From assembly GCA_963843575.1 (NCBI GenBank), contig CAWJKZ010000021.1, forward strand, positions 224,001 through 288,000: a DNA stretch of 64,000 nt, given 5' to 3'. Shown piece after piece: positions 43,660-48,976 of the stretch. A model generated the notes under the pieces. That model was not told the DNA's origin, did not search any database, and worked only from the letters and a program-made list of their open reading frames with translations. The first letter of the stretch is position 1, and the number at the start of each line of letters is the position of its first letter. The DNA comes from an uncultured Acidobacteriota bacterium (GTDB lineage Bacteria; Acidobacteriota; UBA6911). The position numbers were made by a program, and so were the translations under genes.

Positions 43660-44664
43660 ATGCGATGTGCGGTTCTGGTTCTCTTGATGGCGGTCGGCGG
43701 GCAGGCGCAGACGGTCAAAATACTCGTGGGCAACGACGACCCTGTGCTCCTGCAGGAGTTTCGGACCGCCACCCCGGCGGTGCGGATCGTGCCGGTCACG
43801 GCGGAAAACGTCATGCGGGAAATCATCGACGCCGACGCCTTCATCGGAGACATCACGCCCGAGCAGGTCCGCGCCGGCAAGAAACTCCGCTGGGTGCAAA
43901 CCATGAGTGCGGGGGTCGAGCGGGTCCTGCACCGTTCAGGCGGCAACGACCTGCGCGACAGCGCCATCGTCCTCACAAACAACCAGATCGTGCAGGGGCC
44001 GGAGATCGCCGATCACGCCATGGCGCTGCTGCTCACGCTCTCGCGCGGCATCCCCGAGTTCCTGGCCGACAAGCAGCGTGAAGACTGGAGGCCCCGGCCC
44101 TATTCCGGCATCGAGCTCAACGGCCGCACGGCGCTCGTGATAGGGGTCGGCGGGATAGGGACGCAGATCGCCTTCCGGGCTTGGGCGCACGGCATGACCG
44201 TGATCGGCGTAGACCCGGAGGACGTCCCCTACATGCCCGTGATCTCGCAGGTGGTCAAGCCGGATCAGCTCGACGCGTTCCTTCCCCAGGCCGACGTGGT
44301 CTTCGTGTCGGCCCCGCACACCCCGTCGAGCGAAAAGATGCTTGGCCCGAGGCAATTCGAGGCCATGAAGAAGGGTGCCTACTTCATTGCGGTGAGCCGC
44401 GGCTCGCTTTACGACCTCGACGCGCTGGCGACGGCCCTCCAGACCCAGCGGCTGGCGGGCGCCGGAGTCGATGTGACCAATCCCGAGCCGCTGCCGAAGG
44501 GCCACCCCCTCTGGAAGTGCGACAACGCCATCATCACGCCGCACATCGCCGGGAGATCCGACAAGGACCGCGCGCGCATGGTCAACACCATCCGGGAAAA
44601 CATCCGCCGCTTTGTCGAGGGGAAGCCGCTCATCAACGTAGTCGACAAGCAGAAAGGGTACTGA
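43660..44664 (+). CDS. D-2-hydroxyacid dehydrogenase with an apparent signal peptide
   Basis: GVGGIG, catalytic VSRG / DVTNPEPL / TPHIAG. Hydrophobic N-terminus ending GQA. Confidence 0.9.
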   Translation: MRCAVLVLLMAVGGQAQTVKILVGNDDPVLLQEFRTATPAVRIVPVTAENVMREIIDADAFIGDITPEQVRAGKKLRWVQTMSAGVERVLHRSGGNDLRDSAIVLTNNQIVQGPEIADHAMALLLTLSRGIPEFLADKQREDWRPRPYSGIELNGRTALVIGVGGIGTQIAFRAWAHGMTVIGVDPEDVPYMPVISQVVKPDQLDAFLPQADVVFVSAPHTPSSEKMLGPRQFEAMKKGAYFIAVSRGSLYDLDALATALQTQRLAGAGVDVTNPEPLPKGHPLWKCDNAIITPHIAGRSDKDRARMVNTIRENIRRFVEGKPLINVVDKQKGY

Positions 44665-44740: not shown

Positions 44741-47038
44741 TCAGAACCTGTACGTCAGGTTCGCGAACACATTGCGCCCGGGCTCGAAAACCCGCACGCC
44801 CGAACGGAATGGATCCCGCTGATACGACAGGTGCTCCCGGAAGAGCCTGTCGAACACATTGTTCAGCCCGACCGTGAGGCGAAACGCCTTCAGGGAGGTC
44901 CCGACCCGGATATTGGCCAGCCCGTACCCTGCGGTGGCTTCCTCCCGCATGTCCGTGTCGATGTTGCGCTGGGCGCCGGCCAGGACGCCCTCGACCTCGG
45001 CGGAAAAGCGTCCGTTGTCGAACCGCAGCCCGGAGCGTGTGGTCAGGGGCGGCATCTCGGCGAGGTTTTTGGAGAAGATGTTCCGCCCGGGTACCGGGTC
45101 CTGGATGCCACGCGTATAGGAAAGCGAGTTCGAGAAAAACACCCGGGACGTGATCGAATAAACCGCCTGCACCTCGGTCCCGTAAATCGTGGCATCGACG
45201 TTTTCGTATGACCGGGCGTTGGAGTTCATAATCCCGGCCACGGAATTCACCTTGACCGCCCGACGGACGGTGACGAAGTTGTCGATCCGGTTCAGATAGA
45301 ACGTCGAGCTGAGGAACAGCGCCTGCCGCCGCAGGGAAACGGACCCGTCCGTGCCGGTGTTGCGGCTGGGCAGCAGCCCAGGGTTGCCGACCCAATCCGA
45401 ACCGGCCCTGCGCAGCCCGAAGTACCGTTCCGTGGCGTCGGGCACCCGGACCGTGCTCCCCACCCCTCCGGAGAACTCGAGACCCCCCGGGGCCGAGTAC
45501 GTCAGCCGCGCCGCGCCCGAAGGGTAGACGTCGCTGGTAGACGTGGCACGCGTCGAGTTGTAGGCGTAGTAAAGATTCGTGTTGGCCTTGAGCGGATCCG
45601 CCTCGTGCTGGGTCCGATCCACGCGGCCGCCGAACTCCAGCTTGAGGCGGTCGGTCAGGGGCCTGTGGTACTCGGCATAAGCGCCGAACGACACGGCGGT
45701 GACGTCGGGGATGGAGGACTGCGACATGTATCCCATCCCCGCCATCTGGGTGGAGGCATCCCAGTACCGGCTGAAGGCTTCGAAGCCGAGCGTCAGGTTG
45801 TTCATCCCGGCCTCGAGCTTGCCGCCGAAGGTCCTGGTGACGGCAAACGTCCCCATACTGTAGTCCCGCGCCATTTTGTAGGAAGACGTCCTGTACGCGT
45901 CGGTCATCCAGTGACGCACGCCGGTGAAGTATCCGTGGACCCTGACGGAGTCGACCGGGCCTGCCATACGGTCGACCTGGTACCCGAAGCTGACCCGGTC
46001 GGTGTTGTCGTAGAGGGCGTCCATCTGCAGATAGGGGTACAGGACGCCGTCGGCCTCCTGGCGGGTGTACGCCAGTTGCAGCAGTTGATTGGCCGCCGGG
46101 GAGAACGAAATGCCGGCCCACGCGGTACCGATCTGGAATGCGGGGTTCTCCTGGGCTTCGGGCCGGTAGTTGCCATAGCGCGTGAAGAGATTCCCCGAGC
46201 CGTCGCTATACGGGTCGGAGCGGCGATACGAGTAGCCACCCAGGACCGAAAACCGGTCTCCGGCAAAGGAGGCGGTCGCCGAGGGATTCACGAAACCGTA
46301 GGCGCCGGCCGCGAGGTTGCCGGTGGCCCGGAAACCCTTCTCGGGCCTCCGGGTCACGATATTGACCACGCCGCCGAGGCTGCCGCTGTTTTTCACGTCG
46401 AACGGCCCCTTGCCCACCTCGATTCGATCCACCTCGGCGAAGTCGACGTGAAAGGCGGGGGGATCCATGTGATTGGGGCAGGCGCCGTAGACGCGCTGGC
46501 CGTCGATCAGCACATTCAGGTCCTTGCTCTGGAAGCCGCGCAAGACCACGTCGTTGGCGATCCCGCCCTTGCGGATTTTCGAGATGCCGTTGGTTTCCGC
46601 CAGCGCCTCCCCGACGTCGCGCGCCGGGCTCTCGCGTGTCTTCGATGCCTCGAGGCTGTCGCGCGGCGCGGTTCCCACGACCGTGACCATCTCCCTGATG
46701 GTGGCGATCTCGAGCCTCACGTCAAAGGTCCGGGCCTCCCCGGCCGAGACGCGGACGCGGCCGGCCTGGGCAGGCTCGAATCCCTCCAGCTCTGCGGCGA
46801 CTTCGTATTCCCCCGCAGGAACGCCCGGCACGCGATAGAGTCCGCGCGTGCCCGAGACGGCCAGCCACACCTTCCCCGTGTCCAGGTTGCGCAGGCTGAC
46901 ACGGGCCCCGGGCAGCCCCGTCTGGTTTGGCCCGAGCACGAGGCCTGCTATTTCGGCCGGGGGTGGCAGCGCCCCGGCGGGTTCCTGCAATCCGAACGTC
47001 ACGATGAGAACGAACAAGATACAGCATCGAATAACCAT
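44741..47038 (-). CDS. TonB-dependent copper receptor (OprC-like) with an N-terminal carboxypeptidase-regulatory-like domain
   Basis: Plug motif GACPNHMDPP (the OprC CxxxM signature), barrel HWM, Met-rich loops, terminal YRF. Confidence 0.88.
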   Translation of the reverse strand: MVIRCCILFVLIVTFGLQEPAGALPPPAEIAGLVLGPNQTGLPGARVSLRNLDTGKVWLAVSGTRGLYRVPGVPAGEYEVAAELEGFEPAQAGRVRVSAGEARTFDVRLEIATIREMVTVVGTAPRDSLEASKTRESPARDVGEALAETNGISKIRKGGIANDVVLRGFQSKDLNVLIDGQRVYGACPNHMDPPAFHVDFAEVDRIEVGKGPFDVKNSGSLGGVVNIVTRRPEKGFRATGNLAAGAYGFVNPSATASFAGDRFSVLGGYSYRRSDPYSDGSGNLFTRYGNYRPEAQENPAFQIGTAWAGISFSPAANQLLQLAYTRQEADGVLYPYLQMDALYDNTDRVSFGYQVDRMAGPVDSVRVHGYFTGVRHWMTDAYRTSSYKMARDYSMGTFAVTRTFGGKLEAGMNNLTLGFEAFSRYWDASTQMAGMGYMSQSSIPDVTAVSFGAYAEYHRPLTDRLKLEFGGRVDRTQHEADPLKANTNLYYAYNSTRATSTSDVYPSGAARLTYSAPGGLEFSGGVGSTVRVPDATERYFGLRRAGSDWVGNPGLLPSRNTGTDGSVSLRRQALFLSSTFYLNRIDNFVTVRRAVKVNSVAGIMNSNARSYENVDATIYGTEVQAVYSITSRVFFSNSLSYTRGIQDPVPGRNIFSKNLAEMPPLTTRSGLRFDNGRFSAEVEGVLAGAQRNIDTDMREEATAGYGLANIRVGTSLKAFRLTVGLNNVFDRLFREHLSYQRDPFRSGVRVFEPGRNVFANLTYRF

Positions 47039-47152
47039 GGCGGTCCCCTCGCGTTCCTCGGGCGCGCGCCTGGGAGAGCCTGCGCGAGGCTCCGGGGCGG
47101 CAACCGATCAAGCGCATTTGCGGATTCAGCTCGCTGAACTGCGGGGACCGCC
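47039..47152 (-). promoter_or_regulatory. Anti-Shine-Dalgarno stem sequestering the receptor RBS
   Basis: 47039-47048 GGCGGTCCCC and 47143-47152 GGGGACCGCC are exact reverse complements. Pairing extends with bulges (GC, GTTC/GAAC). Confidence 0.7.
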
Positions 47153-47563
47153 TTTCGGCGGCGGACTCGGGACCGAGAGATCGACGGTCAGGCAGGAACA
47201 TGCCAGCGGATGTAAATTGGCCACGGGGCGGAGACTGATGGACAACTCGTCTGGCCGGGGGAGGGTCGCAACCTCCAGCGCCGGGACGGACCGCGAGGCC
47301 GCCTCCTTCGAGGAGAGGCCGCAGTCGCAGGAGGCGCCTTCGTTCGGGACGCAATGATGCACGCCGTTTTCATCCAGGTAGCACCTGGCGGTGCAGCAGC
47401 TCGCTTCCGCACATCCGACAGTCATTGCGTGCGGGTCCGCGGCGCGCGACGGTTTGAGCGCTCCCAGGAGCGGGAAGCCGACCCAGCCCGCTGCGTACAG
47501 GACGAGCGCCGTGAGCGCCAGGGGGCCTGGGGTCGTGCCCGATTGTCGGCGGAAGACCATCAT
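47126..47563 (-). CDS. Cys-rich leader protein of DUF2946/CruR-like architecture, ending in PSPPPK
   Basis: AAGGA RBS; N-terminal TM segment; CAEASCCTARC..HHC..CDC; C-terminal Pro motif; directly upstream of the Cu receptor. Confidence 0.75.
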   Translation of the reverse strand: MMVFRRQSGTTPGPLALTALVLYAAGWVGFPLLGALKPSRAADPHAMTVGCAEASCCTARCYLDENGVHHCVPNEGASCDCGLSSKEAASRSVPALEVATLPRPDELSISLRPVANLHPLACSCLTVDLSVPSPPPKGGPRSSAS

Positions 47564-47647: not shown

Positions 47648-47676
47648 AAAACACCCAAATTAAACAAGGTGGACAA

Positions 47677-47780
47677 GTGGGTCCGGGCTTCAGCCCGGAC
47701 GTCTTTTGAGCTGATCTATATAGCGACGGGCGCACGTTATAGCGACCGCAAACAGCGTCCGGGTTGAAGCCCGGACCCAC
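47677..47780. repeat. REP family A inverted doublet (REPIN-like)
   Basis: GTGG+GTCCGGGC-TTCA-GCCCGGAC ... GTCCGGGT-TGAA-GCCCGGAC+CCAC. Confidence 0.85.
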
Positions 47781-47887
47781 TTCTTTCTTATATCTGGCTT
47801 AGGTAGTTAAAAATAACGACAAACGCTCGCATTTGCTGTGGCGATGTCATACAGTCGGTCCAAGAACCGGAGGAATGAAAGCTCATC

Positions 47888-48976
47888 ATGCGCAGACGAC
47901 ATTTCATCTCCACCTCACTGATCGCGCCCGCGGTGGTGCGGGCGGGTATCGCCTCGCGGCGCAGCGCACCGGGGGCCACCCGTATGAAACTCGGCTGCCA
48001 AAGCGGCCCGCAAACAGACGAGCGGCTGGAGTTTTTCGCGCGCCACGGAGTCGATGCGATCTGCGGAAGCCCGCCGGCCCGGGCGGATGGGCTCATCTGG
48101 ACTGCCGATGATCTGGCCCAGCTGCGGGAGCGGGTCGAAAAGCACGGCATGACGCTCGACATGATCGCGCCGCCGTTTCTGGAGTCCACCCACGTCGACC
48201 GGACGCAGCGCCCGGCGATCATGCTGGGCCGGAGCCCGGACCGCGACCGGGACGTCGAGAATATCCAGGCGCTCATCCGCAACTGTGCGAAGGCCGGAAT
48301 CCCCGCGATCAAGTACAATCTGAACCTGCTCGGGGTGCCGCGCACCAAGCCGACGCGGGGCAGAGGAGGATCGTCGCTGAGCACCTGGCGGCTCGCGGAG
48401 GCGGGCGATCGTGCCACCCGGACGACCAGCGCAGGCCGGGTCACGGAAGACGTCTACTGGGAACGAATCACCTGGTTTCTGCAACGCGTCGTCCCCGTTG
48501 CCGCCGAGTACCGGGTCCGGATGGCCTGTCACCCGCACGACCCGGGGCTGCCGCCGGGATTCGAAGGAGTGGACTGCGTGCTCGGGACCGTGGACGGCCT
48601 GAAGAAGTTCGTGGACATCGAGGCGAGCCCATACCACGGCCTGAACTTCTGCCAGGGAACGGTCAGCGAGATGCTGCAGGAGCCGTCGCGCGAGATTAAC
48701 GACGTGATCCGCTATTTCGGGGAGCGCCGGAAGATCTTCAATGTCCACTTCCGGAACATCCGCGGCCACCGCGACAGTTTCCAGGAGACGTTCCCCGACG
48801 AGGGGGATGTGGACATGCTCAAGGCGCTCCTCGCGTACCGGGATACCGGTTATGAATTCATGCTGATGCCCGATCACGTGCCCCGCCACGACGGCGACCG
48901 GGACGGCCTCCAGGCATTTGCGTTCTGCTACGGCTATATCCGCGCCTTGCTCCAGGCTGTTTCCGAGATGGGTTGA
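47888..48976 (+). CDS. uxuA: Mannonate dehydratase (UxuA) family protein with a Tat-like leader
   Basis: HPHDP, SPYHGLNFCQG, HFRN, FPDEGDVDM, MPDHVP. MRRRHF leader. Substrate not certain. Confidence 0.8.
   Translation: MRRRHFISTSLIAPAVVRAGIASRRSAPGATRMKLGCQSGPQTDERLEFFARHGVDAICGSPPARADGLIWTADDLAQLRERVEKHGMTLDMIAPPFLESTHVDRTQRPAIMLGRSPDRDRDVENIQALIRNCAKAGIPAIKYNLNLLGVPRTKPTRGRGGSSLSTWRLAEAGDRATRTTSAGRVTEDVYWERITWFLQRVVPVAAEYRVRMACHPHDPGLPPGFEGVDCVLGTVDGLKKFVDIEASPYHGLNFCQGTVSEMLQEPSREINDVIRYFGERRKIFNVHFRNIRGHRDSFQETFPDEGDVDMLKALLAYRDTGYEFMLMPDHVPRHDGDRDGLQAFAFCYGYIRALLQAVSEMG

Follow-up and report, generated by a model that had tools for sequence, protein, structure and literature searches.

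The window analysed here is a stretch of acidobacterial DNA of 64,000 nt, with a G+C content of 65%. On its minus strand, a small upstream open reading frame (uORF) precedes the gene of a TonB-dependent receptor, whose start is located 87 nt downstream of the uORF on the same strand.

44741..47038, minus strand: TonB-dependent receptor, 765 aa, with CarboxypepD_reg, Plug and beta-barrel domains (Pfam)
47126..47563, minus strand: uORF of 145 aa, ending in ...DLSVPSPPPKGGPRSSAS* (from the list of open reading frames)

The top NCBIfam model for the receptor was TIGR01778, "TonB-dependent copper receptor", which aligned over its whole profile with 197.5 bits (E 4.6e-58), a score that falls under the curated cut-off of 472. 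The genes on both sides of the pair, a D-2-hydroxyacid dehydrogenase (43660-44664) and a UxuA-like mannonate dehydratase/xylose-isomerase-like TIM barrel protein (47888-48976), are located on the opposite (plus) strand and outside the uORF-receptor unit; thus, the unit was taken to consist of the uORF and the receptor gene. A search for intrinsic terminators between the two was negative on the mRNA strand. The genome also carries a rho gene, which scored 715 bits and above the cut-off, and efp genes, which encode EF-P.

Between the uxuA-like gene and the uORF, at 47670-47790, there is a palindromic element of ~110 nt with two GTCCGGG...CCCGGAC hairpins. It gave 115 BLAST matches in the same genome (both strands counted), is present at more than 50 places with at least 90% identity, some of them in tandem arrays, and looks like a MITE/REP-like repeat. 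In an Rfam search at E<=1, no family matched the stem region described below; the sole matches were spurious and fell on this upstream repeat, which accounts for the one to mir-1422.

A Cys-rich leader protein with a polyproline tail

The uORF protein matched no Pfam or NCBIfam family. Based on its translation and its nucleotide composition, we localized the following features.

47456..47524, minus strand: N-terminal hydrophobic segment, residues ~14-36, a candidate signal peptide or membrane anchor (read from the translation)
47321..47413, minus strand: Cys/His-rich candidate metal-binding block, C51 x4 C56 C57 xxx C61 ... H69 H70 C71 ... C79 x C81
47153..47173, minus strand: C-terminal motif V-P-S-P-P-P-K, a candidate translation-pause site, with PPP codons CCG CCG CCG at 47164-47156
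47118..47299, minus strand: C>G bubble, a candidate Rho-utilisation region, with C minus G up to +19% in 78-nt windows

Alignments showed that the uORF protein is conserved along its whole length. The N-terminal hydrophobic segment aligns across homologues, and the Cys/His block, which contains a CxxxC sequence (C57-x3-C61), includes the invariant residues C56, C57, T58, H69, C71 and C79 in an alignment of 8 uORF sequences and an invariant C, CC, C and HHC in one of 11. In the window uORF, PPP corresponds to residues 134-136 of 145, and the C-terminal tail reads VPSPPPKGGPRSSAS. The C>G bubble spans the 3' third of the uORF together with the PPP codons.

The uORF family is narrow and acidobacterial, being present in 18/51 genomes of the same taxonomic family and in 4/401 genomes sampled across the phylum; in a set of 5.8 billion proteins, its homologues form 18 clusters, all of them unnamed. 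We gathered 41 loci, 20 from same-family genomes and 21 of the 29 detected in a metagenome scan, from which eight were left out as truncated (L048, L054 and L060) or as having a broken frame or lacking the motif (L050, L052, L055, L058 and L061). The removal of 5 near-duplicates from the 41 resulted in 36 non-redundant loci, and a scan of genome contigs returned only three loci, equivalent to ones already in the set.

The Cys/His block is kept in all 36 loci, as is the motif [IVL]P.PPP[KRQE], located 1-10 codons upstream of the stop and also present in further database homologues. The C>G skew around the PPP tail is conserved as well (36/36 and 35/36 loci). In every locus, a spacer of 32-215 nt is followed by a strong Shine-Dalgarno (SD) sequence, the downstream start codons having been chosen by our own rule. 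In 35 loci, the N-terminus of the downstream gene product resembles that of the window receptor, the domain scan itself having covered the window protein only. In a same-genus relative (L010, 3442-4994), the uORF homologue heads not a receptor but a Tat-signal, Gly/Met-rich multicopper oxidase, which is split in two overlapping ORFs (a frameshift or an assembly error) and has a di-haem cytochrome c peroxidase next to it. We link the family to copper because of this downstream oxidase.

The SD-masking helix predicted at the window locus

The sequence-only reading of this DNA had described, behind the PPP-Lys codons, an anti-SD stretch followed by GC, A and GUUC that would complement the SD strand beside the receptor AUG, and this arrangement is present exactly in the sequence. 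On the minus strand, CCG CCG CCG (47164-47156) is followed by AAA (Lys, 47155-47153), GGCGGTCCCC (47152-47143), GC, A and GTTC (47139-47136), while GAAC-GC-GA-GGGGACCGCC terminates at 47039, with the receptor ATG starting at 47038. The elements of the predicted fold are as follows.

47143..47152, minus strand: 5' arm (anti-SD strand) of helix P1, GGCGGUCCCC, within uORF codons 138-141
47039..47050, minus strand: receptor SD GAGGGGA (47050-47044) and 3' arm of P1, GGGGACCGCC (47048-47039), adjoining the AUG at 47038
47124..47139, minus strand: local hairpin GUUCAG-CGAG-CUGAAU in the minimum free energy (MFE) structure, holding the uORF stop codon UGA (47128-47126)
47075..47093, minus strand: spacer hairpin GGAGCCU-CGCGC-AGGCUCU, base-pair probability 0.74-0.99

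The 10 perfect base pairs that had been claimed for P1 were all recovered by RNAfold in the MFE structure of 47020-47175 (minus strand, -69.5 kcal/mol), with base-pair probabilities of 0.88-0.97 in two contexts and an energy of -22.8 kcal/mol for the isolated duplex. Six further pairs around bulges, proposed along with them, reached probabilities of only 0.03-0.06 and are disfavoured, since GUUCAG has a nearer partner in CUGAAU, with which it forms the hairpin that holds the stop codon. The second hairpin placed in the loop (GAGCCU-cgcgc-AGGCUC) is predicted as the spacer hairpin listed above; the alternative pairing of CCUCGCG with CGCGAGG at the SD had a probability of 0.00 whether the mRNA was modelled as free, with a stalled ribosome or with a terminating one, and does not hold. 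No U tract follows the spacer hairpin, and there is no terminator-like site on the mRNA strand.

Perfect complements of at least 10 nt between positions -16..-1 and -150..-40 were found at 382 of 127,690 arbitrary positions in the window, i.e., 0.30%. When 105 windows of this mRNA were compared as partners of the SD zone, the PPP-proximal one ranked first (-33.3 kcal/mol vs a mean of -19.7, sd 4.6). The region overall is not unusually stable (z -0.92; 32/200 shuffles fold at least as well). We take the predicted SD-masking helix to be real and coupled to the polyproline uORF, and it is probably functional.

Ribosomes unwind mRNA with a helicase located at +11 and protect it from nuclease up to ~+15, and both limits were applied here. 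With Pro135 and Pro136 (the second and third Pro of PPP) in the P and A sites, the 5' arm is located at +10..+19 from the first P-site nucleotide; of its 10 nucleotides, a ribosome paused on PPP would enclose 3 under the helicase limit (+11) and up to 7 under the nuclease limit (+15), leaving outside the CCCC that pairs with the SD core. When 100 nt of upstream mRNA were left free to re-pair, no relief was predicted in the window locus (14.1 vs 14.1), since the SD re-pairs upstream; thus, the opening-cost model was restricted to the mRNA 3' of the ribosome and gave the following values.

Window RBS opening cost, free mRNA: 18.9 kcal/mol
Window RBS opening cost, ribosome covering to +15: 10.4 kcal/mol
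Window RBS opening cost, ribosome covering to +11: 19.3 kcal/mol
Window RBS opening cost, ribosome at the stop codon: 12.1 kcal/mol

The earlier proposal that a paused ribosome covers the anti-SD is therefore only partly right: it agrees with the coverage of 3-7 of the 10 nt and with the fall from 18.9 to 10.4 kcal/mol under the wide footprint, but not with the 19.3 kcal/mol of the narrow one, because the pause is placed at the helix foot and full opening requires the last nine codons or termination. Even when relieved, the window SD is mostly paired in alternative structures. Over the 36 loci, the median RBS opening cost fell from 15.5 kcal/mol in free mRNA to 10.3 when a ribosome was stalled and to 9.8 when it was terminating, and a relief of at least 3 kcal/mol was obtained in 19/36 loci with the stall and in 25/36 with termination. 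In most relatives, the stop is located 1-2 codons past PPP; thus, the positions of pause and termination nearly coincide. For the window locus, the modelled geometry is marginal for pause-driven opening.

PPP-SD complementarity across the uORF family

We defined x in each locus as the first base past the last Pro codon and folded the segment from x-100 to start+20. The mean pairing probability of the SD (-16..-4) with the zone x-12..x+23 was at least 0.5 in 19/36 loci and at least 0.3 in 24/36, with 0.55 for the window locus; it was weak (<0.3) in 12/36, including the oxidase locus, for which no pairing between PPP zone and SD is predicted (0.02). As a null, the zone was recoded synonymously with the codon usage of the locus itself, and the non-coding part was shuffled. 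The mean pairing was 0.42 vs 0.20 in the null, with the real value above the null mean in 30/36 loci, and the summed pairing was 15.13 vs 7.11 +/- 0.90, the null maximum being 8.79. For the window locus alone, 2/30 recoded nulls attain the real value.

Additionally, the pairing of each locus's own stall zone with its own SD was compared with that of permuted partners over the 36 loci, which resulted in a z of -4.9 (0/5,000). Six control zones taken from the same loci gave z values from -1.3 to +2.0 in this permutation test, excluding base composition as the source of the signal. When each 60%-identity cluster was reduced to a single locus (24 in all), z was again -4.9 (0/20,000), and without the window locus it was -3.75 (4/20,000), the p-values being overstated because the loci are related.

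The Pro codons of the motif are also biased. CCU makes up 37% of them vs 13-14% of the other Pro codons (36 loci); CCU occupies position 2 of PPP in 23/36 loci and CCC position 3 in 26/36 (pattern CCN-CCU-CCC), and CCUCC is present in 24/36 PPP motifs vs 8.3 expected. CCU-CCC is an anti-SD sequence, and the bias could be due to pairing with the SD or to the way in which particular tRNAs affect the pause. The SD core pairs with the PPP codons themselves in ~11-12/36 loci and with the 5-24 nt just 3' of PPP in ~13/36, the window included. The MFE structures placed the 5' edge of the RBS partner at positions too scattered for this measure to be of use.

Across the homologous loci, own zone and own SD thus outperformed permuted partners, but a consensus helix did not emerge. 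RNAalifold returned no consensus pairs for the 16 alignable loci with similar spacers, and a 9-bp helix in fixed register on this 16-locus alignment had 53% of its cells paired, which was matched by 107/500 shuffles and was not above slid controls. Thus, what is conserved is the relationship between PPP and SD and not a set of aligned columns. We conclude that the complementarity between the PPP region and its own SD is family-wide and locus-specific, and that it is well supported in silico.

A proposed CutF-like switch and its relation to known systems

Two described systems bear on the interpretation. [quoted passage not shown] Changing PPP to PAP abolishes the regulation (bioRxiv 10.1101/2025.02.05.636593), and PPP close to the stop is the hallmark that defines CutF-like stalling uORFs (PMC9973294). 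CruR, in the cruR-bfrG genes of Bordetella pertussis, is a uORF product upstream of a TonB transporter that acts through RAPP and Rho-dependent termination, with copper relieving the arrest (PMC9426467). An in vitro arrest at RAPP has been demonstrated, and TonB receptor genes and copper genes are preceded by RAPP/RGPP uORFs more often than expected (PMC12992588, EMBO J 2025).

The reading that we favour, with modest confidence, is a CutF-like nascent-peptide switch that would control the initiation of receptor translation. In the free mRNA, uORF codons 138-141 would pair with the receptor SD and the six bases preceding the AUG, and this pairing would fold the 87-nt spacer into a multibranch structure, shutting the receptor RBS. 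A ribosome near the 3' end of the uORF would open the helix; a polyproline pause would put the helix foot at the mRNA entrance, and the 5' arm would be wholly stripped by the decoding of the last nine codons and by termination. The dwell time of the ribosome at the uORF end would set the frequency with which the receptor start is exposed. EF-P would influence this dwell time and, if CutF and CruR are a guide, so would the nascent Cys-rich domain as it binds metal, folds or is exported. The receptor would probably be translated only during the stay of the ribosome at the end of the leader. We infer the pause itself, the copper dependence and the sign of the response; by analogy, metal would be expected to shorten the pause for an uptake receptor, as reported for CruR.

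A more tentative proposal, to which we give the status of a possibility, is that the arrest motif and the RNA switch share nucleotides, the PPP codons being selected as CCU-CCC or the anti-SD being set closely behind them, such that the codons occupying the P and A sites of the paused ribosome would be those that hide the receptor SD in its absence. A literature search returned no precedent for this dual PPP/anti-SD coding, which is not proof of its being unpublished. In the window variant, the 10-bp G+C helix and the polyproline pause could reinforce each other as a two-way latch, since the helix begins at +10 from the P site, i.e., at the entrance of the ribosomal helicase.

The C-rich tail brings in another interpretation, in which CruR-like attenuation is the main output: the PPP-paused ribosome would shield a C-rich Rho site, relief of the pause would lead to Rho termination before the receptor, and the stem would be secondary or would aid polarity. 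The C>G bubble, up to +19% over the last third of the uORF and PPP and kept in 36/36 and 35/36 loci, would fit such a site, the rho gene scores above its cut-off, and the layout of Cys-rich uORF and TonB receptor is that of cruR-bfrG, as described in PMC9426467. A CruR-like output could thus operate, alone or together with SD masking, because of the C>G bubble over the PPP tail and the rho gene; additionally, receptor mRNA left untranslated would be prone to Rho polarity, and the two mechanisms could then act side by side. As the main mechanism we consider it unlikely, given that the C-rich skew is mostly imposed by Pro-rich coding, that part of the C-rich zone is predicted to be SD-paired in free mRNA, whereas Rho-loading sites are unstructured, and that it leaves the locus-specific SD complementarity and the CCU codon bias unexplained.

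The opening costs, for their part, would fit plain translational coupling with no regulated pause, in which the stem does no more than tie receptor translation to that of the uORF, and the Pro-rich tail and the Cys cluster serve the mature protein, e.g., by binding metal in the periplasm as a partner of the receptor. In the window model, termination and stall have similar RBS opening costs (12.1 vs 10.4 kcal/mol), relief of at least 3 kcal/mol is more frequent with termination than with the stall (25/36 vs 19/36 loci), and the uORF protein is conserved throughout its length. The short fixed distance from the stop at which [IVL]P.PPP[KR] is held, a CutF-like hallmark in the account of PMC9973294, and the loss of CutF regulation on changing PPP to PAP, as stated in the preprint (bioRxiv 10.1101/2025.02.05.636593), argue against it, and we hold this explanation to be quite improbable. 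The sequence-only reading had itself raised the concern of a chance match in high-G+C DNA, by which the complementarity would be functionless. The 65% G+C of the window, the fold no better than shuffles (z -0.92) and the equal-length matches expected elsewhere in a genome of this size at 0.30% per site lend some weight to this concern. On the other side, the site was fixed beforehand by the uORF, and the relationship recurs in independent lineages at the PPP zone only; we regard chance as very improbable.

The CutF-like switch, which we favour, shares with CutF a small protein with a CxxxC-type motif, PPP with R/K near the stop and a predicted SD-shielding stem; moreover, its same-genus homologue precedes a multicopper oxidase, as cutF precedes cutO. 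According to the operational filters given in PMC9973294, the window uORF is CutF-like (145 aa, PPP at 134-136, receptor 87 nt downstream on the same strand). Its invariant CC, C, HHC and C columns, a candidate metal-binding site, correspond to the Cys motif of such uORFs, and a stem-loop shielding the SD of the downstream gene is present by prediction. It differs from CutF in its Acidobacteriota host and in the usual target of the family, a TonB-dependent receptor; additionally, the 5' arm is located inside the uORF or on the PPP codons, whereas the CutF stem-loop is purely intergenic. DUF2946 (PF11162) matched neither the window protein at E<=0.1 nor 11 family members at E<=10, and there was no six-frame match in the genome, which is 88% complete, at E<=1. 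In the ESM-atlas, the neighbours of a homologue were unnamed apart from one labelled DUF2946/CzcI (0.92), a weak lead.

With CruR (cruR-bfrG/crtA), the window locus shares a Cys-motif uORF directly before a copper-related TonB transporter, a C-terminal, putatively arresting motif with Pro residues, a uORF tail with a C>G bubble, here accompanied by a Rho factor in the genome, and a spacer of ~100 nt. CruR relies on RAPP and Rho termination, whereas SPPPK and a strong predicted SD-masking helix are present here, and RAPP was absent from the C-terminal tails of the 36 loci. In PMC9426467, the term "Shine-Dalgarno" occurs 0 times, and the model published there has no SD-masking stem. The RAPP/RGPP uORFs surveyed in PMC12992588 are similar in being small, with a C-terminal Pro motif, and in preceding TonB receptors, and they bear a signal peptide, for which the hydrophobic segment is the candidate here; they are defined by R[AG]PP, and the window family, with [STI]PPP[KR], would escape the motif. 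The mechanism had initially been presented as distinct from the control at cruR. It does differ from CruR, but it is not new, because a stem-loop that shields an SD and is melted by a stall at PPP is the model already published for CutF.

SecM-secA, MifM-yidC2 and VemP-secDF2 are similar in that an arrest near the end of the upstream ORF disrupts a helix hiding the downstream SD. Their targets are export factors, their arrest is relieved by the export machinery and their arrest motifs are unrelated, whereas here an outer-membrane receptor is targeted, probably in response to a metal; the gene downstream of the window uORF encodes a TonB-dependent receptor and not a Sec/YidC export component.

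The locus would extend to Acidobacteriota the idea drawn from CutF and CruR, i.e., that a nascent, exported, metal-sensing peptide controls the next gene via pausing. It adds a uORF family unrecognised by current domain models and a predicted SD-unmasking output on a copper-type TonB receptor, where Rho-dependent control alone had been described. The 36 natural variants, with the anti-SD on or just behind PPP, offer a series for the helix-to-paused-ribosome distance needed for opening, and the analysis points to a regulatory gene that lacks annotation and to a probable copper-uptake locus in MAGs from soil and sediment. The window family could already be included in the CutF-like lists of the CutF and CruR papers. 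We conclude that the element is a CutF-like member in Acidobacteriota without a DUF2946 match, and not a new mechanism, and that the window family combines the tail and stem of CutF with the target of CruR.
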